Assembly: GCA_905178155.1 (NCBI GenBank)
Contig: CAJINV010000003.1
Coordinates: forward strand, 9,245,979-9,309,978
Source: Amoebophrya sp. A120
Lineage: Eukaryota; Protista; Dinoflagellata
Direction of reading: 5' to 3'
Length of the DNA: 64,000 bases
How positions within the stretch are numbered: the stretch's first letter is position 1; each line of letters opens with the position of its first letter. The notes beneath the pieces were generated by a model that was given only the letters and a program-made list of their open reading frames with translations, was not told the DNA's origin and searched no databases. Position numbers and translations under genes: made by a program. This document shows, one piece after another, positions 6,560 to 34,683 of this stretch.

Positions 6560-7553
6560 AACTCGCCAAGCGGCGCGGAGCGAAAGCAACAAACCCGCCA
6601 AAATTTACAAAACTAATTGCGGCCGCCGTGCCGTGCGGATTCGCGAAGCCGGCAGCTTCGCCAGAAAGCCCGCCCGCGCGATATGGTGCGAACGATGAAA
6701 ATTCGCGAAAAACCGCAAAACCGACTGCGGGCGCCGCGCCGTGCGGATTGGCGGCGCCGGCAGCGAACCTCTTACGAAGCCCAGCCCGCACGGTATGGCG
6801 CGAAAGCAAAAAAATCGCAACAAGTTACGTACAAAACTAATCGCTGCCGCCCTGCCATGCGGATTTGCGAAGCCGGCAGCTTCGCCAGAAAGCCAGCCCG
6901 CACGCTATGGCGCGAACATAAAAAATTTGCAAAAAGTCGCAAAGCCGATCGCGGGCGCCGCGCCGTGCGGATTGGCGAAGCCGGCAACCCCTTAGGAAGC
7001 CCAGCCCGCACGGTATGGCGCGAAAGAAAAAAACTCGCGAAAATTTAGAAAAACCAAATGCGGCCGCCGTGCCGTGCGGATTCGCGAAGCCGGCAGCTTC
7101 GCCAGCAAGCCAGCCCGCACGCTATGGCGCGAACATAGAAAATCTGGAAAAAGCCGCAAAACCGACTGCGGGCGCCGTGCCGTGCGGATTGGCGAAGCCG
7201 GCAACCCCCTACGAAGCCCAGCCCGCACGGTATGGCGCGAATGGGCGAAATTCGTCACAAAAATAAAAAACGCAGGCGATCACCGTCCCGCCCTGATTCG
7301 CGCGGATTGCTGATCTGTCCTGAAGCTGATCCGCATGGTATGGCGGCAATTTGTTCTTGTTGTTTTGTTTTGCTTTTATTGTTGACAATAACAGTCCCAC
7401 CTGGATTCGCGCGGATTGCTGATCTGCTCTGAAGCTAATCCGCATGGTATGGCGGCAATTTTTTTTGTTGTTTTGTTTTGCTTTTATTGTTGACAATAAC
7501 AATTATTATTTAATTATTTTTTTTCTGACCTGCCGGCTTTTTTCTTTGGGATA
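6560..7553 (-). repeat. Right long TIR (inverted copy of the left arm)
   Basis: 7075-7553 is a near-exact reverse complement of 1509-~1990; the inner 108-bp units are more diverged. Confidence 0.9.
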
Positions 7554-9767: not shown

Positions 9768-12700
9768 TTATGCATAATATGCATTAGCATAAGCGAGCGA
9801 CGCGACTTGACTAAATGAGAGGTCTTCTGTAGACTGTTTGAGGTATTCCACGGCCCCATGAACGCCCGGCATCGGAGGAGTACCTGACAGCTCTCCATTA
9901 TCCAGAAAAAAAAGTGTGTAAGTGTAACTTTCTTTGAGGAACAGCATCACAAATTTGCTTTGTCATGCGTGGCTTGTAAGGCAAAACACACCTGAAAAGA
10001 GAGCTTCGTGGCTGTCTGGCATGACAGGTGTAACTCTGTTGCATGTTCTGCAACACAAATTTACACTTACACAGTTTTTTTCTTGCATATCCATGCTCTT
10101 CCCGGTCATGGAATTCGAGTAGTACTCCTTCGAGGTATATCAACTGCAAATATGTCTGGGTCTGGAAGGATGCGAACTTGTGATGCGTGTTGCGGATCAT
10201 GCAAAAATTTGTGTTGCATGACTTGCAAAAGGTCCCCATTTCTAGCCATTTTTTCATTTCATTTCATTCAGAAGGGCGCTTCTCATGCATCGCATCGCAT
10301 CGTATCGCATCGTAGTGACCTTTGACTCCTGTCAGGGTGGCGTTGGAACAGCTTTAGCCCCTGCCAATACCTGGGCGTTAGAACAGATTTCGCCTCTGCC
10401 AATACCCCTCACCATCATCATCATTGAGACGGACCCCCTGTGGTCGTCCTCACGGCGTCGTCTTGGCCCTAGGCTGTTTCGGACAGATGTTGGTTGTGTC
10501 CGGCGTGAGGACGGCTCTGCATGGGCCTCATGCAGAGAAGGCATTTCTCATGCAGAATAGGCTTCACCAAGGGGCTGCAGGACCTGTGAGGACGCTAGGC
10601 CCTGCATTCCAGACCTGGCAGAGCTTGGAAAAACGGCATGACAAATCTCGGAATTTTCCAGACCCAGACATATTTGCATTTCATAAGGTAGTCGAGGACC
10701 ACGGGGCGGTGATCGCTTCCCGTGCAATTGAAATACGCGGTGTACCCCAAAAAGGCCTTCTCCGCGTGGCGACTGCTCAAGTAGGCGCCGCTGGACGCCA
10801 CCTCGTGCCTGGCCAAAGCTGCGGCGTGCGAGTCGTGCTGGCCTGTCAGATGATGACTGTGTCCGCCTCCACCGCCGGGAACTACTGACGTCCTGGAGCT
10901 GCTGGAGGTCGCCGCACAACTTTCAACATCGCTAGAATCCGTTTCGCCCGAAGTGGATGTTGACTGCGGCTGGTCATTGCAGCCTACATTCGCCCCCAAG
11001 GATTGCGCCCTTTTTAACGGAAGCACTTTGATGTCATCTCCTGTCGCGAATCTCGTGGCTACGGAGGGTGAAAGGGCTTCCGCAGATTGAGACGGCACCA
11101 GAGACGAAAAGGATGACAGGGGCAATGCCCCTGTGCCTTGTTGATTCAGCGGACGTCTTCGCAAAACAACGTCTGCCCCATCCTCGTGCAAATGCCGGTG
11201 CGCCGGAACTTTCAGACCGCGCCCGGCAAACAAAATCCGATCACACCAGGCCGGTTGGCGCGACACATCGTAGTGGTACTCTTCTCTGTGAAGCCGGTAA
11301 GTCGGAGGAAACGCGATCGGCATCTCGCGAAGCGCAAGATAGTTCTTGTTCATTCGTGTGGCTACATCTACTCCTGGCGTTTTTCCCAGCTCGCCGGTGT
11401 GCTCTTGCAGACTCAACATGGATGCTGCAGAGATAAGGAAGTCCATATTCAAAGCACGCAACTATAAAAGGTAAAACTCGTCACGTTACTAGATGAAACA
11501 TAGAATAGTCAGGGTACGCAAATTACTCGCGGAAACGACGAGAGTTGTATCAAGGTACGAGGTAGATTTACGCTTACCTTTCTCGTTGAGGTACTGATCA
11601 AACCTGCACAGGTCCCGCCAATGCTTGTAAACGTGGTCGGAATGCCGCGCGGTCGCGCGAAATGGGTCCAACTCTGCGTCGGTGAAGGCAGTGGGGTCAT
11701 AAACATCACTGAGCTGCTCGAACTTAACGCCACCTGCGCTCCCGGTTGATGGGCCCGCAACCGCACTCGAACCACTTCCACGACCCGCGGGCCCAACGAC
11801 CCCAGCCTTCGGAGCTGGCGAAGCACCGCAACCGCTGCTACTTGTGTCAATCCGCGTTTTTAGGAGACGAAAGTTAAAGTCACCAGCACAGATCACAATG
11901 TCATAATTGAAGCGGCTCTTGTCGCTATTCCAGATCCGTCCAGACTGGAGGATGTTTGTCAGTTGCGCGTACCGCCGCGAGGCGTTTGTAATACCGCTCT
12001 CCAGGTGGACGTTGGCGAAGCACAGAGTCGTATCCAAAAGCTGGTATTACAATGAAAAATGCCCCCTCCCCATATCAAAACGGAAATCTGTGATGCAGAT
12101 TTGTGGTCACAAATCAGGTTTGTGATGCTAGAAGGCAAAAGATGCGGACTGTAGTGCTGTCTAGCGTGGGAAAGCCTTGCAGCTCCAGGATGACAGTAGG
12201 CAACTGGAAGTGGGAAACAGCATGACAGATTACCTGCAATTTAGGCCGCAGCTTCGTCTCTTGGCCTTCTATTTGTGTACTCAAATACAGCATCACAAAT
12301 TCGCGCATCTTCCGTTTCCGATATGGGGTGGGGGCTTTTTTCACTTTGATAGCTGGAAGTTCAGCACCACCGCGCCCTTGTTTCCAGCCATGCCGCCCAT
12401 GCCCTCCGGAATATCGCAGCTGCCAATGCGGGAAATCATAGGAGCGAGGTGGTCTGCCACAAACACAACCGAATACTGTCCGATCATCCCGCAACCCTTC
12501 ACTTTCGAGTAGCTCACGTGAGAAAATAGCTTCTCCGACGTAGTGCTGGTCCCACCTCTGAGATTGAGACTCGCACCAGCAGGCTGCTTCGTGGGTGGGT
12601 TGGGAAGATGAACCCCGCTCCTACTAGCCTCCGCAGTCGACTCAGGGCGACCGCTCGCTCGTGGCGGAAGGCTCAGGTCGTAAGAACGAGGTTCGCCAAG

Positions 12701-15700
12701 ACCGTTCCGCCCCTCGACTCCGAGATCGGGATTTGTGGCAGCGGCAGGCGGATCCTTGGCCGGATCAAAACGCGGACAGAAGGGACGCCGGGGGCTCGCG
12801 ACATGGCCGCAGCCGTATTTTTGCTTCAAGGCTGCGTCAATTTTCGCATTGATCTCTTGTATGGAAGCGTCAGGATTGAAATCGACAAAGTTGTAATGCA
12901 TGAAATCGATACCAGTTGGAAGCTCAGTTTCCAAGCGGTGCATGACAAATTTCGGCACCGTCTAAATCTAGTCTGTCATGCTGTTTAGGGACAGGAGGCG
13001 TCTTTTATCGTGCTACTTTAGCAGCTCTATCTCAGACCCCAAACAGGCTGACAGTCAGCCTCACTTGCCATCCCTGCAAGAGAGGCACTTCATGCCTTGC
13101 AATTTATGCATGAGAAATTATTTCAACTGTGACGATTTCAATCCTGACAGTTCCATATCTTGTTCGATCGTCGTATCCCAGGAACCCCCGACCAGGGATG
13201 TGGCGGTGGCGACGTATCAAATGTAAAAATGTCTGGGTCTGGAAGAGTCATGCTGTTTTTGCATGACACAGAAGGTCTGGCATGGAAGCTCTAGCATTAC
13301 AGGTTTCGAGAAGCTTCCGCAATGTCGAATCCGCATGACAAATCCCCCACTTTGGTGACAGAAAGTGGGCAGCTTCTGCTACCCATGCATGAGAGATTTT
13401 TCTGTGTTCTGAAATGTGCATTACAAGTTCGGATTCTTCCAGACCCAGACACTTTTACATATGATACGACGCCCAGATCCACAACTTCTTGGAAGTTAAA
13501 CACCATGATGTCTCGCGGAACTTCCGGGAGAACGCGCGTCAATTCTTGCAGAGGATCCGTCGTACCGCCCACATTCCACGTGCAGGTGAAAAGCGTGAAA
13601 TTGCCGACGTGTAGCTTCTTACGGTGCTCTCGTGATACCAAAAGTAGCGTCAGAGCGGTGCCAGTGAGCTGACGGCAGCTTTCTTGTCTGGGTGTGGCGG
13701 GCCGCCGCGCCGGCGAAACAACAAGACCAGTGGCCTCGCAGTGCCGTGCGTTGTGCCACTGCTGGGCATCATAGACTGCGCTCTTTTTTTTTTAAGTAAT
13801 TAAAGGTGTGTAGCGGCCGCTCAAACTCGTGCCGGAAAGTCGCAAGCTTCTTGCAATCAAAAAACCAAGGCCGGTCCGCTCGCTGTGCCCGGCCCCCGGA
13901 CCTTCACCAGGGCCGAGCCTTTTGACGCCCGGCCCCGGAGAATCGACATCGGCGGGCGCCACAGTACACGGGCGGGCTTTCAGTTTTTCGCCTTTGCGGA
14001 CATTTTCATACGTTTTCATGTTTTTCGCTCCCGCTTTTTACAATCTATCACAAGCGCCACCGCTCCTTTTCCTTTCCTATCTTTCCAACTTGTTTCCGGA
14101 CAATAACTGGCCGACTCACGATTCGGGTGGCCGCATTTCCGGCCCTCAAATGTGAGCACAAGTGATGCCCTCACCATCCAACGACCTCACTTTTTCCTTA
14201 CTTTCCGCTGTTGCTTTTTTGGCGTCTCCGTTTTCGCGTGCAAAAACTAAATCGCGAGAATCCGCACGTCGCAGCGGCGCTACTTTCGCCCGCTCCCCAC
14301 CTGCGTCGTTCTTTAAACTGACGGCACTGGACAGAATCCAGGTGGGCTTATTTGACGCAAAAAACCAAGTGAGCCGATCAGACTCAGAGTTAGAAAGTGA
14401 CAACAATATTTTTGCATGTGTCAAAAATAAAAGCCTCCGGATCGCTCCAAAATTGCCGGTAGGGTTTCTACTTGCTGCATGTCAAGAAAGCCGCCAGGTT
14501 AGAACACTCGCGAGGACCTCACTCCATACAATATTCTGAAAGCGTTCGGAAAGCGGTGGGCTACGCAGCAAAGCGTCGAGACACTCTTGTCGTGTCGCAT
14601 CTTCCACTAACGCGTTGTATTTGCGCGCGACGGACCTCCAGGCGAATTCGTAGTGCGAGTGCTTGCCCTCCCGCAGGAACGTAGAATAGATGGAGGCCAC
14701 GCCAGTTGTCTGCTCGCTAACTTGATCGCCAGCATCCGCCCACAGGACTTGCAAACCCCCTCGAACGCGCTGCTCGTCGCCGGGCACTAGCAGGCCAGTC
14801 CCGATGCCTACCGTAGCCTCCGCCGAGCTCCTCATCGCGTCGTGCGAATGCCGCTGCGGGTCCCTGAAACTTGCCTCCCCACCTGCTCCATTGTATCCTT
14901 CGCCCGTTCCGCCACTTTCTTTTTCCGCTGCGTGCGACGAGGTAGAAAAGTAGTCAAAAAAACTCTGCCCCCACCCCGGCGCGTCGGCTTCCGGCATCTG
15001 TTTTTCCAGTTGCTGTGACGTCGACTTGGAAGTAGGCAGGGTGGGCACGGGACCACCAAAAAGACGTGTGGGAACCGCGGCACCGACGGCGGCTCTGGAG
15101 GCGGAGGCGCTCTGCTCCGCGCCGTTCGGACATGAACCGTCGTCGTTCTTGACTTGTTTTGGCTCTATTCCTGCGATGAAATCGTGAATGCTTTGCCTCG
15201 TATTTGCTTTTCCAACGCTCCGGGAAGGAGCCGCGGCAGAGCACTTAGGGGATCGTGGGGTTTGCGACGACGAGGCATGATGTGGCTGAGCCACAATCTC
15301 GATCGGCCCGACGCTCGTTAGTGCATCCGGACGCGAGAGCGCATGGCCGCCCTTTATTTTATTTGTGGGGGATGCAGCACTACTCGGCGACTTTCCTGCT
15401 GCGCGGCGCTTTTCCTCGGCAAGAAAAACCTGCTGCACGAACCACCAACAAAAACCAAACTGCATCAGGTTTGTGCGATCCAGGCAATCCATGCAATTCG
15501 TGCGCACGACGCCCGACTGCCGAGTCCTCCACACGCACGGATGTGGTTGTACTGGACTTTCTCCAGCACTTCCGCACGCGTCGCCCGGCTCGTGCGCTTC
15601 ATGATCGGAGGTCCGTCCATGCACTACGTCCTGTGCGCCGCGGCGTCCTGATTCGCCAGCACTTCTATCAAACGTCGTCTGGTGTGTCAGCACCGCCACT

Positions 15701-18700
15701 TGGTGCTCGGGCAAACCGTCACAGCTCGCGAACCCGTACTCTTCGAGTTCCGGCCGCCACTTGTCCATATCAAGTGCAAAAGTGTCTGGGTCTGGAAGAT
15801 TCCGAGATTTGTCATGCATATTTCTCATGACCCATGATGCCTGTGGTGCATGATCTAGCATCACAGACTTTTAGAGGGCTTCCTGATGCAACTTCCGCAT
15901 GAGAAATGCCCTGTCCGTGTAGCACAAACTGTACCCCTCTTGCTGGTCACGCAATACAAATTTTTTTGGAGTCCAAAGTTAGCATCACAAATTCCAACCT
16001 TCCAGACCCAGACATTTTTACATTTGATAGTCCACCTCTGCAAACAATTCCTCCACACTCGTAAGTCCCTTGTGGTTGCAGGATCGTGTGTAGAACTGCT
16101 TCCGCCCCATACTCAAAAAAAACATGATGCCTATGGTGCGTGTTCTGCTTTACACGTCAGAAACTCGTCCGGGGATCTGCATAGCACAAGTTTGTGCTCT
16201 ACTGACTAGGCATACGTATGCAGAAATTGCATGACAAGCACAACAAGTAAGGGGTGGCGGGGAAGTTTTCAAACAGCGTACGAAGTCGAAGTGCTTCAGC
16301 AGAAGGCAGCGACGCGCCCCAGCGGCTGCCCCTGATATTGCACCGTAGTCATCGGGCCCATTCGCGCGCGCGCTGCTCGAGGGGGACCCGCCCGAGGACG
16401 GAGACGAGCTCCCGAGCTGCTCCATCCGGAGCGGCGCCACGCCGCCCGTTTTTCCGGTGCAGTGCGTGGTGGTCTTGTCGTGTCCTCGCGTGGTCGCGGA
16501 AACGCCGTCCACCGCGTGCAGCCGCAATTCGGCGGCGCGCCCGCTATCCTGAGCCGCCGTCGTTCGTGGTGGCGTCACCGTGACGTCGCTGCCCCTTGGT
16601 GGAACACCACGGTCTGTGCCTGCGGGTCCCTGGGCGTCGGAGTGAACAGCTACTGAGACCGCGTCGGATGTACGGAGGAGCTCCGCATCTTTGGGAGCGG
16701 TTGTTGTAGAAGAGGGTGTGGTCGTGCCAACGGCTGTGTTGAGACTGTCTTCTCCTCCTGGCACGACCCCAGAAATGTTGCTGCACGCAGGTGAAGGGAC
16801 CACCGCACCAGCAGAGCTGCTGACGGAAACTGATGCAGCGACAGCCCCACAGTTGTTCTTGAGGCCCTTAGTACTCAACCGCGGCAGCTTCGAAGCCACG
16901 GCACGGCTATCGCGATGCCGAACTTCGCGTAGGTACTCCTGCACTTGCTCCTGCAAGGAGTCGACTAGCATTTGCTCTCCTGCTTTTTTGTCCTATTACA
17001 ATGAAAAATGCCCCCACCCCCGAACTTGGAAGCATTTGTATTGCAAACCTTTCCAAATGAAACATTCGCCCTCTTGCATCTATCAGCATTACAGGTTTCC
17101 AGTCGTGAATAGCGAAAATTTGTATTGCAAAAGACCCCAGCAAGAGCGGCGCTTGTCATGCAGGCAGCGCGATACACGCCTAGACTCTGCATCAGAAAGA
17201 TAAGACTCGTACTCCTTTCATGCATGACAAAAAGTTTTCATTTGGAAACTTCGCATCACAAATTCTTGCAATTTTAGGGGTGGGGGCATTTTTCACTGTA
17301 ATATGTCCGACAGCAAGTTCACGTACATCACGCAACCATACATCCTCTCCAGGCCTTCCTGGTGCTTTCGGAATCCCTCCTTTGCAAACTGCGGATGCGC
17401 GCCATCAAGAGGAAGAATCCCCGCTTCCAGTGGTTCAACATCCACGTGCTTTGCTTTCTTTCTATCGATATCGTGTGCACACGACCCAGCACCATTGTCC
17501 TCACATGTGTACATACATTCCTTCGGAGATACCGGGCGAAGGCCCTCTATTGTTCGGCGCCCCAAAACGAGCACCAGCAGGGAGGTGATAGTACCTCTAT
17601 TTGTCTAGGTGCTAGCTATGGACGCGCTCGACGCCTCTTCTGGTGCCGTAGACCAAACAGCAGTATTCAAGATGGAGCACCGGCGGTAGGATGCGATAGA
17701 AAGCTCTCGATCATTATTTGAAGAGCGCCTTCTGGTCTTCGCAATTTGCGTATACAACTAAACGCATGAGAATCACAGATCTCCTTTGGAACATGGAGAG
17801 CGGGATAAATTTTTCCTGATGATACTCACGGGTCAGCTCCGGAATTCCCATTGCATTTTGCTCCCAGAACAGCGGCACCGATCCCCGTATTTGTATAAAG
17901 CTGTATTGCGTGAACAATGTCGCTGCACCAGCCGTCGTGGCCGAGGGCGTTGTACTAGCAGCAATCGACAAAGATGCAGCGGTCCTGGTGAGCTGTGCGA
18001 GCTGTTCCAATTCGCAGAAGTTAGCAACGTCCCCCGCGTCGTCCATGCCTCGACATGCATACCGAGTGCCAACCCGGCGACAAGAGCGTCGCACGATCAA
18101 CAAGAGCCGGACTGAGGCGGACGAAGGGACTGGACGGCCGGAGCATCCGCTAGCGGGGTCGCTGGCGCTACCCGACGTCGCCATTTCGCAGCCTCTATGG
18201 CCGTTCGTAGCCTTGACATTTTTTTCCTCCCGTGCTGTTGACCCAGTACAATCTGTTGCAGCGCTAGTCGCCTTTCCGCAGGACGCAGGAAAGAAAGTGG
18301 TCGGCTCTCTCACCAGCCCACTAGTAGGAGACTGCAATCCCTGAGGCAACGTAACGTCTTGGTTCGTCCCCAAATTCGGTTGGCTGGGACGGTTGCCTTT
18401 GGCGTACACTCTGTGCGTGCCGGCGTCTTGAGGCACGACGTTGCCTGAGTTTTCTCCCTTTGCGACTGCTCGTCCAGTTCGCGAGGACATACGCTCGGCT
18501 CGCTCGTGGGTGGCACGGTTGTAATCCGCCGGCGACAGAAAAGACACATCATCTATCGCACGCTCCCCGACAAATCCCTGCATAAGCACAGAGAGCCACG
18601 CCTGCGTTCGTGTGTCCTGATGAAGAAAAATCCGTGCCATCTCGTGGTTCCAGACAAACCGTACGTCCGCTGTTTCGAAAAGAAAGTGCTGTGTGTTCTC

Positions 18701-19684
18701 GTAGGAAGCTGACAGTCGCCCACTAGCGGCACGGGGGATTCCGCCTGGGCCTACCGAAATCGGTTTTGCAGGAGGTTCCTGCTGCCGCGCTGCCGGTCCT
18801 ACTACACATGGGCCTCGTTGGTTAGCGGCATCCGCAGTTCCAGTTCCCGTCCCCGACTGCATTTTGACTTCAGTGTTAGCCGCCGAAAGAGAGGAGCTCA
18901 CCGATACGGGCGCGCCGCACCCATCTCGGAGGTGCGAGCGAGTCGAACTAGGCGTACTACGGAGCGCACCCGGCGCAGTCGTTGCGGACGAGTTGTTGTA
19001 CATGGCCAACTTGCGCTGCAGTGTGCGAGTGAGGTCGATCTCGTTGCTGAAGTAGAACCCGGAAGATTGCAGGAGGCGCTCCAGACCCTGGATTTTTTGT
19101 GCGTGTACAGTACTCGTACTATTTTGCGCACTGTTAATGGGCAGTAACTCCACCTGGGCGACCCGGAATATTTTTCCGTACGAAGGGCTCCGGTTGCAGC
19201 CGCCGGCATGGTCGGGTGCGGCCCAGTGGTCACTCGTTGCAGAAGAGCCGGGAAAGAAACTGAACGGGCGCGACGAGGGCCGATCGTCGACGTGCTCGCG
19301 CTGCTTCTTGCTGGTCGTGCCGGCGCCCGAGAAAAAGGGGTACGCGCCCTCAGGGTACAGGTCCAACACTTCAGTGGCCTTGCTGCAGTACAGGAGGTAA
19401 TGCATGCGCTTTTCGAGCGACAGGATTCCAAACAACGCCAAACAGCTCCTCGGAGGGTGTTTTGTCGTGTTACGCTGAAGCCCGAGGGGGGTCTCGTGCA
19501 GCAACGGCATGGAATGCAAATAGTACTCCGATCGGGATGTGAAAAGATGTAGACTCCTTGAAATTCTTGTGCTCGGCGGGCAGTCGCAGCCTGAGCTCTG
19601 CAAAAATGCCCGGCGCAGAAGCACGCCCCTTTTTTGCTCGTCATGGTCGTCTTTCAAACTCACTATGCTTTCTTGGTTGAGCAC
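9768..19684 (-). CDS. Synaptojanin-like phosphoinositide phosphatase (SAC1 domain + inositol polyphosphate 5-phosphatase), multi-exon
   Basis: SAC motifs RRSCRRVGTRY, ANFCELEQ, QIRGSVPLFWEQ, VNLLSDKKAGEQ (after splicing) and catalytic RTNCMDCLDRTN (CX5RT). 5-phosphatase motifs TWNVGG, FQEVVDL, GNKGAV, FANVHL, GDFNFRL, FPPTY, PAWCDRILF, GSDHRPV, in the expected order. Ends approximate. Confidence 0.9.
9899..10089. mobile_element. TIR introner (family D), non-canonical intron
   Basis: TIR TATCCAGAAAAAAAAGTGTGTAAGTGTAA vs TATGCAAGAAAAAAACTGTGTAAGTGTAA; TSD TCCAT (9894-9898, 10090-10094); removal reads EEHG-ELSG. Confidence 0.88.
10138..10685. mobile_element. TIR introner (family A, TGTCTGGGTCTGGAA), non-canonical intron
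   Basis: TIR TATnAAnTGCAAATATGTCTGGGTCTGGAA; TSD AGGTA (10133-10137, 10686-10690); removal reads SDHRPVVLDYL-EGVLLEF. Confidence 0.92.
11425..11577 (-). other. Probable canonical GT-AG intron
   Basis: G|GTAAGC donor and TCTGCAG| acceptor join ORFs 11489-12037 and 10595-11461 in frame (NEK-ASMLSLQ). Confidence 0.6.
12045..12351. mobile_element. TIR introner (family C, GAAAAAnGCCCCCnCCCC), non-canonical intron
   Basis: ~40-bp TIR; TSD GCTGG (12040-12044, 12352-12356); removal reads GNKGAVVLNFQL-LDTTLCFANVHL. Confidence 0.92.
12860..13157. mobile_element. TIR introner (family B, TATGGAAnnGTCAGGATTGAAATCG), non-canonical intron
   Basis: TSD TCTTG (12855-12859, 13158-13162); removal reads TTIEQE-INAKIDAAL. 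Confidence 0.92.
13215..13466. mobile_element. TIR introner (family A), non-canonical intron
   Basis: TIR TATCAnATGTAAAAnTGTCTGGGTCTGGAAGA; TSD CGACG (13210-13214, 13467-13471); removal reads QEVVDLGV-ATATSLVGG. Confidence 0.92.
15768..16029. mobile_element. TIR introner (family A), non-canonical intron
   Basis: TSD GTCCA (15763-15767, 16030-16034); removal reads EELFAEVD-KWRPELEEYGF. Confidence 0.92.
16994..17303. mobile_element. TIR introner (family C), non-canonical intron
   Basis: TIR TATTACARTGAAAAATGCCCCCACCCC; TSD TGTCC (16989-16993, 17304-17308); removal reads VNLLSD-KKAGEQML. Confidence 0.92.
17403..17824. mobile_element. Decayed TIR introner
   Basis: Imperfect IR (CATCAAGAGGAAGAATCCCCGCT vs TATCATCAGGAAAAATTTATCCCGCT); flanks CGCGC/CTCAC match 3/5; removal +5 nt reads ELTR-(A/E)HPQFAKEGFRKH. 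Confidence 0.6.
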
Positions 19685-22600: not shown

Positions 22601-23059
22601 GAGAGTGCGTGGCACTTTGATCCAACAAGAACGAATCTCTACGCGGAGTCTCTCAGTGTCAGTAGTGGTGCTCAGGCCCCCGCATTATACTGTTGTGCAC
22701 AATATCAAACGCAAGTGGTGCTCCTGCAGCATGACGCTTCAAGACTAGTCCTGGCGATGCCCAACGTCGAGCCTTTCGACGAGCCTACTGATTCAACTCA
22801 ATTAGTAGTCTTGTCATCAGAACAGATGAAAGACACTCCCGACAAAGGCAAAAGTAGAAGGCTTGCCAGAGAAAGTGGACGCGGCCAGTAGCAGACTCGC
22901 TGTGCCACAGATGCAGCGCAACATATTACTGGACTTCTACTTCTTTATCCCACACCGACACCACCCGCACTGATTATAGTATTATTACAAAGTGAGACTA
23001 TTTTTCCGCGGCGCTGGTTACAAGAGCTGGAAAGACGGGCGAGCGTGCACGTCGTTTGT

Positions 23060-25130
23060 TCAGGATATGGACATCTCTGGACTACTCTGGTTCGCAGCGA
23101 GGGGGAGGGCGCTCCCGTTCGCCGCGAGGGGGAGGGTGCTCCTGAGAGCGGCAGCGATCTCCTTGTGACGGCGGTCGTCGGTCCGGTGCATCGTCTGATT
23201 CGTAGAAGGATCCTCTTGTAACGGCAGGCCCTCGGGAAGCCCCTCGTCGCCAGACGCCGAGGTCGTAATGTTTGCTGTGCTGTTGGCAGGCGAGTGCTGC
23301 CGAGCAGTAGAGGACCCGGGGTGGCTATTCCTCAAAGTCGTCCCCCGACTCGACGGAGCCCGAGTACCCACGGCACCCGCTTGCTGTTGTTCTACTATCT
23401 TCCTAGCGCAGTCGTAGCCTGAGGGACTCAGCGGCCCTCGCTCGGTCTGAGCAGGATCTTTACCGCTAAGGAGCAAGTACCTCATCCAAACCTATGCAGA
23501 TAAAGCGTACCCCGGCCTCAACATACGCAATGCACTATCATGAATGTTCTTTCCATTGCAGCAAAGCTCCCAGTGCGCGCTGATCATCACGTACTGAATT
23601 TATTTCCGGAGATCGTCGCAATGCCGTCGCGCATTTTGTTCGAATAGCAGGGGCCGGCACGAACAAGATCACGATACTTATAGCAAGGCATGCCGCATGC
23701 GACGACTTGCAACGATCATACAGTTCTCATGTGAAACTGAAGCCTCCGTGCCTTGGTAAACGGATTGCAACCCTAAAGGCAACCCATAACAAGGGTTTTG
23801 CGTTGCATTGACAGAATGCGACGTGTTTTGCTGCAGAACGTCGGCCCGCAAGGCGGAACCAATACTGCAAACCACATCTCGTCTACCATATCTATTTGTA
23901 AGAACACATTCGAAACATCTTCAAGTGTCATACATGCAAGAAGGAAAAAGGAAATGCTTCCGTTGAGGAAAACCGCAAGGCCCTGGGAAGTGCTTTGTAG
24001 GGGCGGGAAGGGGCACGCTTTTTCGTATGATAAGAACTGCTCGTGATTGAGCAACCGATAATCAAGCGTCTTCAGCGCCCACCGTTGCACCTCCATCAGA
24101 TGCTTCTTAGGGTACACGGGGTACATGTCCTTCTTTTCCTTGTACTGGGACGGAATCCACCCTGCAAGTCGTTTTTGTTTTTCTTTATAATTTTGGCCAG
24201 GCCGACATCGAAGCAGTCCTCCAAGCAGCAGGCCAGCGCATCTCAAATCAAGAATTTAGTGGTATAGGTATTGAGAAAACAAAGGGACGACAAATAAAAA
24301 GACAAAAGGGAAAAACTATACGGAAGACGTAGTCGAACCACCACTTGAAATGACCCGGCTCGTCGAAGATGACAAGCGTGGCTATGCGAAGCAAGATCGT
24401 GAAGATCTTTCCGTTTGTATCACGTTCAAAATTGCCCCCACCACACTGCTACCCCTAAAGACAGCCCTCATGTCTGCTACTTCCGTGAAACTACACGCAG
24501 TGACTTAAAAATTGCTACCAGATACTGATTACTTAATCATCGAGGACAGGAGGCTTGCTTTGGTGAGTAGTTGAAGGAGACCTTTTTGCACAAGATAGAT
24601 TTCCGCATCATCCGCTGCAAATTTGCCCTTATTCTCTCGCATCCAAGCGTCGTAGTTGTTGTACGAGGCAGGCCTCGGCATTACGGGCTGGCCGCTTGCT
24701 ATCGCAACAAAAAACTGTTTCTCTGTAAACTTGTAATGCAGAAAATGTATCTGAGAAGTATTTGTCTTGCTACACATGCAAGACAATGGATTTTTAGCTG
24801 TGTTTTCTCTTAGGAATCTCGCATGGCAAATTTTCTCTATGATGTAGAACAAACTTGTGATGCAAAACTTGCAAAATCCTTACAGTGAAACACTTTTTTC
24901 GTGCGATACTTGCGTTCTTCTTGCGATTGAGTGGCGGCTTGGACCCCGTCGGGTTGTGATCTTGGTCGTACCGCCTATATTCATCCTCCCATCCGTAAAT
25001 GGCTGCTCGCTGGTCCATCACCCAGAGCTCCTCATCAACCGGAATTTTCTCTTCTGGGTCGATAGTATGTGGTGGCGTGGGTGTGTCCTTAGGCGCTTCG
25101 TCTATCCTACAGAAAAGCAGAGCTACTAGT
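23060..25130 (-). CDS. Hypothetical protein, multi-exon
   Basis: ORFs 24794-25021 and 24529-24852 join in frame across the 24700-24908 element; further exon-like ORFs at 23773-24246 and 23060-23485. No family recognised; ends approximate. Confidence 0.5.
24700..24908. mobile_element. TIR introner (family D-like), non-canonical intron
   Basis: TIR TATCGCAACAAAAAACTGTTTCTCTGTAA vs TATCGCACGAAAAAAGTGTTTCACTGTAA; TSD CTTGC (24695-24699, 24909-24913); removal reads RKKNAS-GQPVMP. Confidence 0.9.
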
Positions 25131-27612
25131 ACAATAAACTTTATCTTTTTGTCTCAGCGTTTACCCGTAGTATTGTACCCTGTGGTACTCATCACATTGA
25201 GATTGAGTAGATACAAGTATCCAAAAGGACACACATATAGGTACTTTGAATAGCGCGCTCGCATTCCTTCGTAGCTTCTCTGGTCAGATACTTGAACTTA
25301 TACAATAATATTGACGTGCCTGCTCTGAGTCTGACAACTCTGTCTTGTACACTTGCATGGGACACTTCGCCAAGTAAGTGTTCGCGATTTTATACAACTT
25401 GGGCTAGGCGGAGAGAAAAGCCGTGACTATGCAAGCGCTTTTCTGTATGATATTTTCCTGCAGCTTCACAAAGTACCACGACCCAAGGGCTAAGACGGCT
25501 GTGAAGAATGATGACAGTTTTCGTTTGTGTGGTGCAAGGCAGCAGCATCGCTTGCCCGCCCGTGCAAGGACTAGCACAGCGGCTTTCTTCCTCTAGCTGA
25601 GGTAAAGACCGCCAAGCAAAGCTTTCGAGCGGAAAAATCAGTAGCAAAAGACGGAGCCATCGGTCGTGGCCACTCAAATGAAATCAAAATCATCTCATTC
25701 AGATACAATTACAAATCCATTTCTATTTGTTGCGGGGGCAAATTAACAAAAAACAAAAGTATCATAGAAAAGTTTTTCATCGGGTGAGGAAAGATTTTGC
25801 AAGACACTAAAGCTGTATTATACCAGAAACATGCTCGCTTGCGTGCATTCGGAATTCTTTCATCAGCTGGACGGTATTGCGGACACTCTGCCATATGGGA
25901 AGACTGAGGCGAACGTTTATCAAGACAACCATGCGCCGGACCATCTTCACCAGAACCCTATTCACTGCAAATGTGTCATGGCCATATCAAGACAAAAGAA
26001 CTACATGGCGACAAGTAGCTCCCACACACACATCTTCCAGCCTCGTTGTCCTTAATTAAATTTCTAAGAACTTTGATATATTTATAAGTCGCTCTCGTCG
26101 GAGTATCCCAGTGTCAGTACACGATTTTCATTTTGATTTTGGGTGCTATAATGAAGTCGCAGCGCATTTGCTAAAAATACTCTACTAGACCCCGAGGTGG
26201 CAAGACAATATTTGGGAAGGACAGAGGATACATTTTCCATTTGTAAAAGCAGCTCGACCTATTTATTATGAATGCATATCACCTTCTTCATTGTCTAGGC
26301 GACCACAACACACTTGCCAGCGATAATCGAAATCGAGCTTCGGTTCGCGCCTGTCGATGAAGAAGCGGAAAAGCATACAATCTATAGAATAGGACATCAA
26401 ATGTGAAATGCTAGAGGTACGAGGATCCAGGTGGGGCCACGTATGCGCATCCTGGTTTTCGTTTTCATGTCTTCCCCGTACGATGTGCTGAAGTTGCATT
26501 TTAATAGTGAATCAAAAACTGAGTACTTATATACCAAAATGTGTGCTGCCTGGAATTTAAGTCGTCGCGCATGTACTTCACTGAAACTTCGTCGGAGTCG
26601 GTCCTTGCGCTCGGGACTCAAAATGAAAACATTCCCCATCAAAGGTGAGTCATACACAATGCAAAGTTCTTGCTCTACTTGCTTACAAGAAAATAGCTCG
26701 CCGTACGTGCGCTTTGTTTCGTTTATCCTTTTCCTGCGATGCTTAGTCTACAATTGATGCTGGCCAAGCAAATAGATCTAAGTACTATATGCTCTCCTGG
26801 GTGGGCAATGTTTGACTCTGCTTACGCTTGCAAATCGTTTCCTGCCCTCGTCTATAAAGACGCGGAACGTGTTTAGCGTCCGCCTATGGATTGCAAATAT
26901 GTCATGGCCATAGAACTTACCAGGGCACTTGCCTAGCGAAAGTAGTGCACTTCCAAGGCGTATTGCCCTACACAGAAGCTTAAACGAAGCTGTGTTCCTT
27001 TCGCATGACATGCAGTAATCACCAAAATCTATAAGACCAGGGCTCGGTATCTAGAGGTCCATGGTCTTGACATCTTTGCAGCGCGTACAGTCTGCTGTCC
27101 GGCTTCAACCAACCTTGCTGCTCGTCCGTCTGTCAATTCATAACATCGATCGTCGCTTCATCTCGCAGTTGTGTTCAAGTCGCAAGTCGACTCGAACTAA
27201 TACTAAACAAATCCAAACGCAAATAAGTAAAACAAGTAAAAAAGCTTCAATCAATACCAGGCAAGGACTGGAAGCTTGGGTCGATGCCCCGGACAAAGAC
27301 GGCGGAAAAGAATAGAGGGAAAGTCAGTGAGCTTAAGTGACACTACAGGAATTACTAGCCCCGAAAAATATAATCGAAGTTGCCATGAATTCCGTATCCT
27401 GATCTACTTCCTTGATATGTTTAAAGTGAATCTGCGCGTTTCATTCTTGTACGTAGTTGTCGCCTCGCCGCACAGAGAGGAAAGAACTCTATGAACTCTG
27501 ATGCAACATCAGACAGAGTGATGCAAACAAGAAGAACCAAGGCTCCTATGTATGGGCTGCCATGCGTTTACTTTTTCGGGGCTCAGCTTGCTGTGGAAAA
27601 TGAAAGTCACCT

Positions 27613-30020
27613 CTAGATTTCCCGTTCATAACACACACACGACTCGCTCTTGGGAAAAGGAATGCCGGCAAGTCCCAAACCGTGCGGGCCAAAATGCCGG
27701 GCGGCATAGGTTCTCTCCAACTGGTCTCGAGGGCTCGGGGTCGGCAACCCGTACGATGACCTTGAGCCCCTGCAATGAGGACCGACGAGATGGGGTGTTT
27801 GCAGCGATGGCGTCGACTGCGAGGCTGCAGTGGTGCTCGGGGTATCGGCGACGCTTTGGCTGCCTGAGCGGTGGCTGATAATATCCTGGTTATGAGGTGA
27901 CGGCGTGGCTCGGCTCAGCGACTCGCTTTCGGATGAGGCACCCCGCCCGCGCTTGATTCGTGGCGGCGTTCCTAACCCAAGTGCGGCGCTCGAAGACGAG
28001 TTGTCCCCATCCATGCCCGTGAGCTGAATCTCCCAACTTCCCGAAGAAGACCCTGTGCCAGAGCAGGTGCCGAACTGTAGACAACATCCCTCGTCACGTA
28101 GAGGCGCGCTTTCGTAGGTGTCGGGCGCGGGTCCCGCTGGTCCTTCGCAGGGTCCCATCTCCTCGGGCATGCGGTCGATGTACACTTTGTGGAAAGCCTC
28201 GCGCTCAGCCGGAGTGAGGTTCTGAAAACCCGGCACCTTCCACAGGGACTCCCAATTGTCCTGTGGTCGGCGTGGAGGTTGAGGATGAGGATGCGCGCCG
28301 GTATTACCGCCGCTAGAATGGTCGCAACTAGAAGTAGAGCACATCGGCCTCGGCGCGGACGCGGTCCCCATTTTTGTTGCTGGCGCCCGCTGCTGGACAG
28401 ACGCTGCGCATGCAGGCTCCACTGCGCCTGCTGTGGTTCGTGGCAACGAAGGATTGTTCCCAATGTTGTTGCCGGACCGCGGCGGAGGCATCGGATGCAG
28501 GGTCAAAGAATTCGCTGAGGGCACGCCCGGTTTCCGGTTGTTTGCTGCGGCGCCGGGCGGACCTTTTGTCCCGCTAGCACTCGTGCTGGTGCTGCCAGCA
28601 CCCCACGGTACAAACCCTCCTGTCTGCGCGGCGTCGAACGCGCCCTTGGACAAGGCGCCCTTGGACATCAACGCTTCTAGAAAAGTTTTCTGCCGCTTCG
28701 GGCGCGGTTGCGAGCCAGGCGACAGTATGGATTGCAAAAATGTCTGGGTCTGGAAAAATGCAGCAGTTTGTCATGCAGATTTGCATGGCCCATGAGGTCT
28801 GTGATGCATGCCACAGCGTCAGAGATTTTGCGAGGGTTTTCTGATGCTCATACCGCATGAGAAATGCCCTCTCCGCGTAGCACAAATTAGACCTCTTTTG
28901 CTGTTCATGCAATACAGATTTTATGTAGATTCCAGAAGTAGCATGACAAGTTGTATTCTTCCAGACCCAGACATATTTGCATTTGATAGACAGTGACAGA
29001 CTCCCGATGTCTGCCTCGATCCCCGCCATTTCTCGATCCACCTCATGGTCATCATAGCCGCCGGGGGGGCCTCCACCTCCACACGCTTCGCCGGTTCCCG
29101 CTGCCTCGTCGGAGGAAGATGGAAAGCCGATAAACTGATGGCTTACACGGTGGAGCTGGTGAGAAGACGACGGTGGTGCGCTGCCCGGCGTGCTAGCTTG
29201 TGAGGAAGCGGCGGCGTAGGGAAATAGAACGTTTCGCGATGTTTCCCCAGAAAGCCGAAACTGGTCTCCACCTCGATCTCTGTGGGTGGTTGCGTGAAAC
29301 CACCAAACCAAAACCCTGGAGCACCCCCGAAGCAGCACGGTCGATCCCCCTCTCCATACGGCGAGCCGCCGTTGCTGGCCACGCGCCCCGTTTTCGGCTC
29401 TCTTGTTCCGCCGATCAAAGAAAAAAACTGCGCTGTGCGACGAGTTCGTATACAAAACAACTAGATTGCAGGTGCACAGGCAGCGCAACCGTTTGCGGCA
29501 CTGCATTAGCTCCTGCCAAGGCGAACCAGAAACTGCCCACGACCTCCCTCAATTTCCTGAACCTAAATACCTGCCTGCACTGCGGTGCATTGTTGAGAGC
29601 CAGGCATCTCGAAAGACGCAACACCGCCAATGGGAGCAGTACAGGAACGCTCAACTTCAACAATCGGGGAGGTCCATGCATACTTAAAAGCATACAAATG
29701 TATACAAAAACGCTACCGCAGCTGGTACGTCGTCGTGTAAACAATAATCAGAGAGCTTTGCTGTTCTTATGGTCGCTTTCTTTCTCGCCTGAAAACAAGT
29801 ATAGTAGGTCAACATAGAAGAATACCTAGAAGTATTGCGCATCTTCTGCAAAGAAATGCCGAATCTCTTACCACAGCTTTTTTCTTGGATATCTCCACAT
29901 TCTCGCTCGCAACGGGCACTGACCGGTCGAGCAAGTGCGGCAAGTGGTTTTCCAAAGCCCTGACGACCTCAAGGAGAGTGCTGGAGCTAGGCAGACAGAT
30001 GCGCTGGCGCGGCTGCAATT
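27613..30020 (-). CDS. Hypothetical Ser/Gly/Pro-rich protein, multi-exon
   Basis: ORFs 28574-29506 and 27613-28737 join in frame across the 28726-28988 element (GSLSLS-PGSQPRPKRQ); upstream exons unresolved. Confidence 0.55.
28726..28988. mobile_element. TIR introner (family A), non-canonical intron
   Basis: TSD GACAG (28721-28725, 28989-28993); internal sequence clearly homologous to 15768-16029. Confidence 0.92.
29413..29891. mobile_element. Decayed TIR introner
   Basis: GATCAAAGAAAAAAACTGCG vs TATCCAAGAAAAAAGCTGTG (16/20); flanks CCGCC/TCTCC match 3/5. Confidence 0.55.
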
Positions 30021-32033
30021 CTGCTTTACAATATCTAACAGTCCTCTGTGCGAGAACTGAAAGTGGAAATCGCGTGAGCCTGAGCCGTAGGCGCCTCCAC
30101 TGCCATCACACCCAAGCAGCTGCCGCTGGACAACTGAATCCCTGAAGACGCTACTGATTCTTTGAAAGGGCGGCCCTTTGACCGGTAGGATCGTGTCGAT
30201 GAGAAAGACGCAGCTACTTTATTATTGCTGAAAAAACCGCCCGTAGTTGAATTGCGTGTTCTGCTACGTCGCACCTCGGCCATGTCCAGCGAAAAATCGA
30301 CGCGGTGAAGGTCGTCAGTTGGTAAAAATAAATCCCCGCAGCAGTACTCGTATTTGCAGATGTTCGGGTCAATCCTCGTAGTTGCCCTCCTCGAGACGAA
30401 GGGTGTTCGGTGTCAATCCACCCCGAGGAAGGCAAGTCGCTTGTTTGTTCTGCACGAGAACGTTCGAGTGCTCCACCTGCGCTCTTGTTAGAAGTCGAAG
30501 CTGATGATACGCACTTGGTATTCAGGTTCTCGGTCGAATCCCGAAATAGAAACTATACTAGATTGCCTCCATGATCAGTCGGTATTCGATCTGCAGAGCC
30601 GTCGCAGTGCTAGCAGCTGCATCTAGCATTGCGGCGGCCCCGAAGGCGGAAGCTCACCAAAAGTTTCGAGGACCCGGGATGTGTGGGCTCTACTAGTAGC
30701 AGTAGCAACTTTACCGCGCTGGCACTGCAACCGTGGTCATCGACTGATTTGCCTCGGATGACGTCACAAGACTATATGGCTCGGTTCGTTTCCGGCATCG
30801 AGTCGTCAATGATGAGCCGGGTTGCTCGAGCTGTTCATCCGCATCCACAGGAAGTATCTGCACCCCCGGCAAGGCGACGCTCTTCAGGAACTCGATAGCG
30901 TTAACCCTGCTCCGGCAGGACTGTCTGTACTATGTCTAAAAAAAGTAATTTGCTGTACTCTGCATTCATTGTTCTATGACTTAGCGCCAGGATTGTTCCG
31001 ACCCTGGGTTAGACTATCCTCGTAATTCACACGTAAAGATGTTGGCACTTTGGGCCCTACTATTCACAGGGTAATAATGCTTGAATACGTACTCCGTTCC
31101 AGGTTGAGTCTTTGTCTTACAACTCTTGCTATAGGTACATTTGCCTTCATGAACGACCACATCACCATACTCATACAGAATGGCTTATCACGATAGAAAG
31201 CGAGGCATACAGAAGCTTTTGGTCGCTTGATCAAATAGGGTTTGGTCTATAGGAACTACTACAGTATCAATAATTTTGCAGATATTCTTTCACTGCCATC
31301 CTGTAATGTTGGTCAAATGAATCGACTCGGTGAATATGAATGATCGTCCCACCAACAGTGATCTAGCAGCATCGCAACAACAACAACTACAGCTTCGCTT
31401 CCATAGGAGTAACTTGATCTTTTTATCGACGCGATCTGCTTCTGCATCCACGCAAAACTAATCGCATACTACTTGCTCTGTGGCCTCTTTTGCGCTGCTA
31501 GTCATCGTCGGGCACCCACTACTTAATGAATATTGTGGCTGTAGGTTAGTAGATCCAAATATCAGCGTCTATAACTATATAAACATTATTGACCTCGACG
31601 CAAGAAATCAAGAATAATAAATAAACTAATTTCTGAACATAGTTGCTGACGTCGCGCGAAGAAAACACGCACAAGCCGTGCACTTGGATGCAGTCAAGTA
31701 TTTCTAGATCTCGGCGTGAAAGCTCAAATCATGCTGCGTGGTGGAACGGCGCTATCAAACGTTTTCAGTTCACAAAAGATGCATTTTCCATAATTACACT
31801 TTAACTTCCAGAGAATCTGTGCTAAACCATTTATACACTCATGATTCATACTGCTATTTCTATTCATTCTGAGGTACTCAATAGACGTTCGCCTGGCGGC
31901 CACTCGGCTGCATATATGGCATGCGCAAAAAAGGGGTGTGAAACTGCATCTACATCTAGTCGACAACAACATTAATCTTAGTGCGTGTTTCGGTCAGACG
32001 GTTACTTTTTGTGTATCCACCTAGTGCGTACTA

Positions 32034-34683
32034 CTACCACAGTGCCTTCCCAAAGTGTAGGACAGAATTTTTGTTCTGGCGGACCATCTGCTCGCGCTTT
32101 GCGAAGATAATCGTGATGCTGCCACCTCTTGCAGGAACGCGCACTGTAAATTTTTCGCCTACTATTGCACGATAGAATATCGTCTGCGTTTCTGGTGTCC
32201 GGTGGCGCGGCAGCACAGCTTCGTCGTTCTCGTTAGGGGTAACGAACTCTCGATGAGCATGCTGCACATGAAAGTCATCTGCAGCTTCCACATTGGTCAC
32301 CGACTGCTTCGACACTTGTTCAAAATTAGACGCTGTTAGAGCGCCGGTGTGTTCGGCCCAGGCGTCCACCCCGACAAGCTCGGTGCCATGTTGGAAAGCG
32401 GACAATGACATCTTCGCCCAACACGCTGCGTCACAAGACACATCGGCAGCAGCCGGTTTGAAATTCGTAAAGATCATCGCTATCGCAGAATGAGAGGAAT
32501 AAATTGCTCGCCTTTGCGATCCCACAGGCCCGGAAGATTGGTCGCGCACTTGGTCGCGCCGCTCATGATATAATTCAGGTGCGTCGCGGCTTCTGACGTT
32601 CTCTTTCAAGAACTTCTCGGTGAACCCTTTTTTGGGCGAGCAACGCAAAGGCCCTCCGCATTCTCTATCCAGATGATCCGCTGCACCGAGCAGGCGACCC
32701 AACCCGATGGAAGAGTGCTGCACGAGGTCGGAGGCAGTGAGCACAATCTCCCGTGCTGCAACGTGTGTGAGATCCAGAAAGCCGTAACTGACGATTCCGC
32801 CCTGCCGACGTGCCTGCTGGTTCACTGAAATCAGGAGCCCGTTGCGGTAAGTGGTGAGGTCCCACTCAGTGGGGCTGCGGCTGCTGACGTTTTTGCTTGA
32901 GTGCAAGAAGAACAGCTCAGACGACAAGTCCGGCCCAAATGCTGGGGTCGCCTCGCGATCCACCTGGCCGCCCTGCTCCTGATTTATTGTTCGTGCTCTA
33001 CCACCATAAAAATCCTCTTCATTCGTCTCTAACTCCCTGTGGTCTGCGAGTTCTTTGGGGCTCGGCCTGCTATCGAGGGGCGCACCGAGCAGGAGCGGGG
33101 CCCCGATCACGCAGTACAGCGAGAACTGGGTCCGGCTGACCGCTGGGTCCATGTAGATCAATTTTGCCTGCACGGACCGGTGCGCGGGGTTCGGTGAACT
33201 CGCAATCAGCATGTCCAGGTCATTCCAGCCGCCGGGACTGCCATACGCCTGCAGGTCCCGAAAGCGACGCAGTGCATCTAGCAATGACAATACGTCCGTG
33301 ACGTCCGCGGAAATGCGCCACATATTCGCAAGCGGGGCCCCGAACGGGGGCATGGCGTAGAACCGCAGGTCGGAAACAAAAGGGTGCTGCCAACCACCAC
33401 CGCACACGGAGTACAGTACCGGGTGTTCCCTCCGTTGGTTCTTCAGCAAGGCATCGCGGAAGGCCTGAAAACCGTCCAGTTCCGCCGTTTGGGTCTGCTC
33501 CGCATAACAGTTGTCGATCTTCACAAAGTCGACCGCCCAATCGATTGCGAACTGCCGTGCGTTATGGAAGCGTCAGGATCGAAATCGACAAAGGTGAAAT
33601 AATTTGCCATGCATAAAATGGATGCCAGTTGGAACCCAGTTTGTATAGTGGCGCATGACATTGGTGGTCTACGAGTTGCAGAGTTAGTGGCGCATGACAA
33701 ATTTCGGGAGCGCCAAAATCCAGTTTGTCATGCTGTTTGGACAAAGAAGACTACTCCTGTCATGCTACTCTAGCAGCACATCGTCTTCCCCCAAACAGGC
33801 TTGCAAAAATCGGTCTCCTCTGCCTGCTCCCCAACACAGGGGGCCTTGAGTGCCCCACATTCTCTGCATTACAAATTTTTCGACTTTGTCGATTTCGATC
33901 CTGACACTCCCATATGCGTCCACTGCTTCGTACTGGTGCGACCCCGGACGGCCGGCGCACGTTTCCGTGCCCCGGTCCGTGTAGATCCCGAATTTCAGGC
34001 CCAACGCGTGAATTTGATCGGCCACGGCTCGTATTCCGTTTGGAAACCGGTGGGGGTCGGCCACCAGTTTCTGGGTGTCCTGGTCGCGCGCGTCCGCCTG
34101 CCAACAGTCGTCGAGATTCACGTATTCGTAACCCAGGGCCGCGAGCCCGCTCTCTTTCAGGTAGCGGGCGCGCTCGAGCACGATCCTGAGAAAAAACATC
34201 CCCACGACGACCCAAGAGAGAGTCAAGATGAGAAAAAACTATTGCCCTTTTGGGTCGAGATGGCGACAACTCTGCAACACAAACCTAGAAGTTTTCGGCG
34301 CCACGCATGACAAGTTTGGAATGCTAGTGTAGTCGCATTCAGCTAAGCACTGTAGCTGCATCACAAACCGATCCCCGTCCTGATTCTGGCATCATGACAA
34401 ACTGCCAGACAGCATTGCAGAATGCTCCCCATGGGGCTGCGCAGGAGAAACGTCTGAGGCTTGCAGTTTTCCACCACATCCACAACTCTGGGGTGGAGAC
34501 GTTTTCACATGGGATAAGCACGATCGTTTCGTCTACATCGCAACCAACGTCGTTCCAACTATTGTAACCCATCGGTGGAAGGCGAGCAAGCCCGTTCTGC
34601 AGCGCTTGCGCGACCAAACCGGTCGAGGAGGAGGGTCGTGACACCGACAATGCTGAGAAACCTGCCAAGTGCAGGAATCCCAT
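32034..34683 (-). CDS. Glycoside hydrolase family 27 alpha-galactosidase / alpha-N-acetylgalactosaminidase, 3 exons
   Basis: LQNGLARLPPMGYNSWN, GYEYVNLDDCW, RFPNGI, GLKFGIY, TCAGRPGS, spliced DARQFAIDWAVDFVKIDNC (nucleophile Asp), NMWRISADV (acid/base Asp), PGGWNDLDML; hydrophobic N-terminus. Start codon uncertain. Confidence 0.93.
33563..33914. mobile_element. TIR introner (family B), non-canonical intron
   Basis: TIR TATGGnAGnGTCAGGATCGAAATCGACAAAG; TSD TGCGT (33558-33562, 33915-33919); removal rebuilds the GH27 motif EAVDA-RQFAIDW. Confidence 0.93.
34182..34516. mobile_element. TIR introner (family C-like; left end GAT), non-canonical intron
   Basis: GATCCTGAGAAAAAACATCCCCAC vs TATCCCATGTGAAAACGTCTCCAC; TSD AGCAC (34177-34181, 34517-34521); removal reads VDETIVL-ERARYLKESGL. 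Confidence 0.85.

Follow-up and report, generated by a model that had tools for sequence, protein, structure and literature searches.

A paired subterminal word shared by introner families of Amoebophrya sp. A120 and its probable role in transposition

Introners and a recurrent word in the window

The DNA considered here, called the window throughout, is a stretch of 64,000 nucleotides from contig CAJINV010000003.1 of Amoebophrya sp. A120, and all positions are window coordinates. Between 9899 and 34516 it holds 11 young introners of 191-548 bp, numbered E1 to E11 in order, with TAT...ATA at 21 of 22 ends and an exact 5-bp target-site duplication (TSD) in all 11. They were picked out from the output of a finder blind to any internal motif, which asks for an imperfect terminal inverted repeat (TIR) with an exact 5-bp direct repeat alongside; its output in the window also contained chance pairs and tandem-array matches. 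An earlier note on this DNA had listed 15 occurrences of the word GCATSACAAA, in both orientations, and had claimed that they are concentrated in introners. All 15 listed positions are exact matches, the window holds no others, and both orientations are present (10 plus, 5 minus), against a mean of 0.39 and a maximum of 2 in 100 dinucleotide shuffles. The concentration is complete in the window, since every match lies inside the 11 elements (3,327 bp) and none in the other 60,673 bp.

The elements fall into about five terminal-repeat classes. E1 (9899..10089) has TAT...ATA ends, an exact 5-bp TSD and exact sites at 9944 (plus) and 9959 (minus). The GTCTGGGT-type terminal repeat is found in E2 (10138..10685), an element of 548 bp in which no site is farther than 151 bp from an end (exact match at 10636, plus); in E5 (13215..13466; 13333, plus); in E6 (15768..16029), in whose outward sites the G is 50 bp from one end and 48 bp from the other (15808, minus; 15982, plus); and in E9 (28726..28988; 28767, minus). 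C-rich terminal repeats mark E3 (12045..12351; 12119, minus, and 12290, plus) and E7 (16994..17303), which has 7 sites including an exact direct pair at 17222 and 17253, 31 bp apart. E4 (12860..13157; 12940, plus) is of the GATCGAAATC type. Two elements lie in one alpha-galactosidase gene: E10 (33563..33914), with a tail-to-tail exact pair at 33692 (plus) and 33724 (minus), and E11 (34182..34516; 34358, plus), in which 5 of 6 sites are antisense to the minus-strand transcript. An exact match is thus present in 10 of the 11 elements, and the remaining one, E8 (24700..24908), has relaxed sites only. In all this they agree with miniature inverted-repeat transposable elements, being short, bounded by TIRs and TSDs, and giving no Pfam match in 14 open reading frames (ORFs) of the 4 longest small elements. 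The sequences are also repeated in the genome, with summed DNA contig depth of about 700-110,000 in element bins versus about 44 in flanks, a measure that is not copy number.

The form and placement of the word differ somewhat from the earlier description. GCATSACAAA stands as an exact form, but the true form is wider, GCA(T/A)NA(C/G)A(A/G)(A/G), at 3-7 sites per element; a matrix trained on the window elements, GCA(T/A)NA(C/G)A(A/G)(A/G)YY, finds 60 sites spread over all 11. The sites had been called internal, and they are instead subterminal: in all four elements longer than 500 bp, every site lies within 189 bp of an end. The carriers had also been said to have unrelated TIRs. Several classes are indeed present, but they are not wholly unrelated, as the TAT start is common to all but one end and most have AAA at 11-13.

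The window also holds seven decayed non-canonical introns on the minus strand. No motif is present at 24413..24597 (which runs from its TAT end to ATA+5 and has a C-rich-type terminal repeat), 25098..25452, 25954..26325, 26880..27087 or 29409..29892 (boundary uncertain by 1 base). The intron at 27306..27630 has no relaxed motif and one weak matrix match of 9.2 bits, and the decayed GTCTGGGT-type intron at 35566..36006 keeps one mutated site, now without its first G, at exactly 50 bp from the end. From 36007 to 64000 there is no young element with an exact TSD, only decayed TAT-N7-AAA pairs, for example 42134-42303, 55226-55518 and 58055-58338.

Sharing, conservation and geometry of the sites

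Copies of 8 of the 11 window elements are present, at scores of 0.76-0.94, in a second assembly, a metagenome (contigs JACKZZ01...) that may or may not be A120 itself. A query of two tandem sites plus an element end gave at least 144 stretches, 142 loci of them from one assembly, among the matches listed. Two metagenome matches lie outside the main assembly; one (L036), in which no element was seen by eye, was excluded from counts, and the other (L136, 680 bp) was kept in the background set. The motif-blind finder yielded 311 element candidates in these loci, of which 39 without TAT-type ends and 2 overlapping ones were dropped; of the 270 left, 114 that fit the search pattern were set aside and the 156 unselected "bystanders" (38,547 bp) were counted. 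Bystanders are neighbours of selected elements and not a random genome sample. They comprise 11 terminal-repeat classes and 7 unclassed elements, and 13 families have at least 5 copies in the assembly.

The enrichment check holds in this sample: the bystanders contain 136 exact matches versus 0.5 in shuffles, a relaxed site is present in 154 of the 156, and 149 have two or more. In the background DNA of the loci there are 157 exact matches in 281 kb, 108 of them near looser element ends; the 49 left in 243 kb, many of them clustered, are probably unrecognised elements. A viral collection gave 2 matches to the tandem word and none to the end-anchored pattern or to the main terminal repeat, and prokaryote genomes gave 3 matches (about chance level by estimate). 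An Rfam scan of the window gave no match. The ends themselves are uniform, with T, A and T at positions 1-3 in 557, 560 and 556 of 562 ends (partly imposed by the filter) and A at 11-13 in 501, 521 and 540. In a common terminus variant (e.g. L011:2274-2422), positions 4-13 read GCATTGCAAA and themselves score as a motif site, a hint at a possible common origin of the internal word and the terminal N7-AAA. Insertions are found in both orientations (97 forward, 106 reverse), their TSDs are without base preference and element lengths without reading-frame bias; one introner (L042:2793-3084) sits inside a gene for the largest subunit of RNA polymerase II.

That the word is a cis-signal shared across families, as the earlier note proposed, is borne out by its enrichment in the unselected elements, and alignable interiors do not explain it. 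With ends and sites masked, only 4 of 113 between-class pairs exceed z of 4 (median 0.8), compared with 16-28 for three within-class pairs. Pure shared ancestry of the interior, which the earlier note had offered as the alternative, does not fit, since interiors of different classes are mostly unalignable while the core is kept. Mismatch to the family consensus was counted in 13 families (130 bystander copies): it affects 126 of 3,345 cases (3.8%) at the five core positions, against 3,599 of 17,396 (20.7%) at other interior positions and 7.3% at terminal-repeat positions 15-28; the alignments anchor on motifs, so the contrast of core with interior may be somewhat inflated. Position by position, mismatch is 0.9% at position 2, 2.1% at position 8 and 24.7% at position 5, the most variable. 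Neither strand is favoured, in site counts (347 sense, 341 antisense) or in core mismatch (61 of 1,591 sense, 57 of 1,589 antisense, p 0.78).

The sites are arranged in pairs. Same-strand partners are spaced by 30-33 bp and opposite-strand partners by 38-42 bp, G to G, and in most classes the first outward site lies 40 or 48-52 bp from the end. In two classes this arrangement was favoured by the search pattern itself, and geometry was therefore tested in the other nine alone, with one unit each and 37 sites. Ten same-strand pairs fall at 30-33 bp versus 1.2 under the null (maximum 7 in 20,000), nine opposite-strand pairs at 38-42 bp versus 1.6 (look-elsewhere p 0.001), and the best period is 10.5 bp (p 0.0003), with overall estimates of 10.3-10.5 bp. 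In 96 bystanders of these classes, 236 of 346 sites are partnered. Short elements carry two or three pairs, and the order and orientation of sites vary between classes while the spacing rules hold. Direct-pair units show no visible tandem duplication, as flank identity outside the motif is 28% versus 29% for unrelated sites. Spacings of three and four turns, in either orientation, would let a dimeric protein contact the double helix from one side. In the family consensuses (loci L003-L145), pairs also recur every 80-95 bp, and some 10 bp upstream of sites there is a weak TT-GS echo.

The window contains one further element with this geometry, a foldback-like element of 6,045 bp (1509..7553) with TAT...ATA ends, an exact 5-bp TSD and arms of about 970 bp at 93% identity. 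The arms are built of 108-bp repeats around a central 244-bp array (15.7 copies, 98% match), and the first 29 bases are those of one small-introner class. It holds 24 copies of a variant word, GCAYGGNRYGG, which are all the matches in the window, and in 7 of 7 left-arm units these form head-to-head pairs exactly 40 bp apart. This is the modal head-to-head spacing of the small elements (45 of 132 pairs at 40-41). The element is one independent case, and it hints that the pair geometry is universal.

Splicing, transposition and other explanations

Evidence on splicing comes from joints in contigs of four runs of RNA type. Fourteen of the 15 joints listed (6 further ones are unlisted) were examined, the fifteenth being an element-internal paralogue joint, and the transcripts across them are from the minus strand. 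They comprise 4 GT-AG introns, 1 GT-CG intron, 2 young elements and the 7 decayed TAT...ATA+5 introns, which have damaged TSDs. In every one of the four runs the joints leave out E8 and E9, each along with one copy of its TSD; E3 is skipped in an RNA-type contig by length arithmetic, which also agrees with removal of E4, E5, E10 and E11. Removal evidence thus covers E3-E5 and E8-E11, with E1, E2, E6 and E7 unbridged among the contig rows listed. Exon 32034-33557 is identical to an annotated A120 protein (P0001), from which E10 and E11 are absent. An intron at 26612-26825 has a GT donor and a CG end, with an unambiguous joint in 4 of 4 RNA-type runs. The seven decayed introns are likewise skipped in all four runs, and none of them has a relaxed site; their 7 core-only matches in 2,335 bp equal the exon background of 3.0 per kb, versus 21.6 per kb in young elements. 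What persists in them is TAT and most of AAA at 11-13, and the remainder decays. Their joints map the 5' splice site to the TAT terminus and put the 3' site five bases after ATA, both to within one base and regardless of what those five bases are. Since decayed non-canonical introns are skipped without a site, the motif is dispensable for splicing, and the two jobs appear to be split, with a mobility signal inside and the splicing signal likely at the ends.

The reading that we prefer, at a probability of about 0.62, is that the motif is a subterminal double-stranded DNA binding array for a shared transposition protein. Of the two options in the earlier note, the transposase signal agrees with the symmetry between strands, the helical phasing and the placement near the ends, although binding is here inferred and no transposase was found in the ORFs scanned. 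A word of about 12 bp, with the motif as its core, forms regularly spaced pairs of sites towards each end of young introners in many terminal-repeat classes, and we propose that a dimeric protein of one shared transposition machinery would bind each pair. Arrays at both ends would help gather the two ends for cut-and-paste, and the catalytic part would cut at the TAT ends, leaving the 5-bp duplication. The bound protein may be the transposase itself, perhaps an integrase-like one of the kind listed for A120 family 38, or else a partner of it. The sites would be kept by selection for mobility, while spacers and terminal-repeat positions 14-28 drift. After insertion the sites would be free to decay, and copies that lose them would stop spreading and stay spliceable through their ends, with splicing likely reading TAT-N7-AAA.

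The nearest alternative shares much of this. A host-encoded DNA-binding factor, such as a transcription or chromatin protein or a domesticated transposase domain, might bind the pairs, and sites would be kept because the factor helps elements spread or be tolerated when young. Strand symmetry, phasing and cross-class sharing are explained equally well by it, no transposase is known in A120, a single word is common to 11 terminal-repeat classes, unlike the subterminal words of CACTA elements, which vary by family, and the TGCATG start presumably resembles apicomplexan AP2 sites. We nonetheless consider it unlikely, as the word is absent from the 60.7 kb of other window DNA, gene boundaries included, the fixed distance to the end (40 or 48-52 bp) points to end-processing machinery, and the element at 1509-7553, a sister with a different tail and the same geometry, fits a transposase co-evolving with its ends. 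A splicing role read from the RNA, as an alternative branch point, an RBFOX-like protein site or a guide-RNA target, was the other option in the earlier note and has fared worse. A U-N-A-C branch-like core does lie within the word; an outward site lies at, or close to, 40-63 bp from each end in 9 of the 13 family consensuses, which would leave a sense site near the 3' end either way; and A120 is without U1 and has no known route for splicing these introns. On the other side, all 7 decayed introns are skipped without a site. Among 157 strand-called unselected elements, 65 have no sense site in the interval 30-65 nt before the 3' end and 12 lack one altogether; E11 is removed despite its mostly antisense sites; and in the three families that have an outward site at just one end, 13 insertions are in a permissive and 9 in a non-permissive orientation. 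(The strand calls are from a codon model that agrees with Pfam in 8 of 9 called loci; a canonical-donor word check, at 30 of 57, gives little information.) Conservation is without sense bias, the most variable position is position 5, which we take to be the key G of the RBFOX word UGCAUG, and helical phasing is unexpected for a single-stranded signal. An obligate splicing signal is largely refuted, and any splicing role is improbable.

Descent from one ancestral element or tandem repeat, with the word left as a neutral relic, would account for the TAT ends and 5-bp TSDs common to all classes, and the weak interior similarity of a few between-class pairs agrees with it. Common descent of all classes is indeed likely. 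The sites are nevertheless being kept: their core is about fivefold more conserved than nearby interior and more than terminal-repeat positions 15-28, site order and orientation vary by class while spacing rules persist, and pair units are without trace of duplication. Descent may account for the origin of the word and not for its upkeep; as the sole explanation a relic is ruled out by core conservation, subject to alignment bias at the anchored motifs, and we rate the neutral reading very low. A nucleosome-positioning or DNA-bending signal without a specific reader seems just as remote. The 10.3-10.5-bp period, the TT-GS echo, the 80-95-bp recurrence of pairs and a shortest common class of about 150 bp would suit it, but near-invariant single bases (positions 2 and 8) are not something that nucleosome positioning signals need. 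Least credible is the notion that opposite-strand sites pair to stiffen an intron RNA hairpin. In the first 90 strand-called elements shorter than 340 bp, motif bases are predicted to be paired in 2,882 of 3,802 cases versus 7,393 of 12,163 for other interior bases, half of them with another site; yet in families F1, F28 and F29 all sites are on one strand, structure needs no single sequence across families, and pairing is an expected by-product of inverted copies.

Several observations weigh against the array of binding sites for a shared transposition protein, or against parts of it. No transposon-type Pfam match was found in 181 ORFs, which cover well under 1% of the genome, and in the available parts of their paper Farhat 2021 (PMC7789003) report that A25 has two putative transposases while A120 yielded none, which they take to rule out general mobilisation by transposases. 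The geometry has exceptions: off-phase spacings of 18, 24 and 55-57 bp occur, end distance is not one clean 10.5-bp series across classes, and in one class, of about 150 bp, the 75 bp next to each end contain no outward site. The element at 1509-7553 contains no GCATSACAAA though it looks young, and for that reason the exact word is not universal. On the ageing of sites, site density falls only weakly as TSD damage rises (rho 0.21, p 0.012, n=146), and 7 assigned copies whose TSDs have 3 or fewer matches keep their cores (mismatch 9 of 155 versus 123 of 754), so neutral decay of sites inside motif-bearing families is not demonstrated by the comparison with TSD age. An age-binned singleton test did not separate the hypotheses, as almost every copy sampled is young. 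Only 2-3 of the 7 old introns carry terminal repeats that can be recognised as those of motif-bearing classes, and some of the motif-free introns may derive from families in which the word was never present. Finally, the RNA evidence comes from contig assemblies of four runs, all from a single sample, whose status as RNA was guessed; the raw-read RNA run X9 gave 2 reads only.

Known end arrays and the meaning for A120

The available parts of two papers describe A120 introners. Farhat 2021 (PMC7789003) give inverted repeats TAT-N7-AAA, 29,850 copies in 1,954 families and the lack of a U1 snRNA (small nuclear RNA), and Gozashti 2025 (PMC12130899) give, among 40 of 58 A120 rows, family 38, of about 808 bp, with TA/TA ends, a 5-bp TSD and integrase-like ORFs. 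The elements of the window are alike in organism, TAT-N7-AAA ends, short direct repeats and non-canonical splicing (PMC7789003, PMC12130899), and published family lengths of 149, 209, 252, 260, 278 and 305 bp match elements found here. Those accounts, so far as available, describe terminal and direct repeats only; here an internal motif, its pairing and its phasing are added, the direct repeat proves to be a clean TSD of 5 bp, and introns span TAT to ATA+5. The motif is not described in the portions of the A120 introner literature and supplement text at hand, nor in passages of PMC11282704 and PMC12005148; figures, and Roy et al. 2023 (Curr Biol), could bear on its novelty. We regard the motif as real and the internal paired, phased word as apparently new in the literature, and it probably works like known end arrays, having a repeated word near both ends, confined to the ends in long elements and conserved beyond the neighbouring sequence.

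The closest parallels, again from the parts of the sources available, lie in other transposon groups. In piggyBat (PMC11707139), end motifs at 44-bp steps are bound by transposase dimers, and piggyBat/piggyBac, Tol2 and Tn7 share with the present elements short words at fixed steps within the ends, in both orientations and kept in non-autonomous copies. Their words are family-specific and binding to them is shown, whereas here one word serves 11 classes in three pair geometries and binding is inferred. In En/Spm (PMC2613891), TnpA binds subterminal repeats; this CACTA element is alike in its multi-copy subterminal word, and its DNA-binding protein is needed for transposition and supplied in trans, but it has CACTA ends, which are lacking here, and words that vary by family. 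IS3EU/GingerRoot (PMC10045372, PMC6839031) have similar TA..TA termini. Their TSD is usually 6 bp rather than 5 bp, and it is for this reason that the introners are not assigned to them; nor was a transposase seen here among the ORFs scanned. In the available main text of the GingerRoot paper (PMC6839031) the words "subterminal" and "sub-terminal" are absent. An autonomous partner element with a transposase was found neither in 427 kb of loci nor in the ORFs scanned, and family 38 is a lead to the partner protein.

These results bear on both the movement and the splicing of the roughly 30,000 A120 introners. A conserved, phased, cross-family word would mean that many families answer to one DNA-binding protein, and it gives a bait for that protein and a signature for the autonomous element. 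A bolder version, which we hold as speculative and rather doubtful, is one universal A120 intron-making machine, in which a single DNA-binding protein, possibly host-encoded, recognises phased GCATSACAAA pairs and thereby licenses any short stretch bounded by TAT-N7-AAA ends for transposition, whatever the terminal repeat. If true, it would explain about 2,000 introner families without an annotated transposase, and splicing would read only the ends. For splicing that is independent of U1, the search would be narrowed to some 13-16 terminal bases plus 5.

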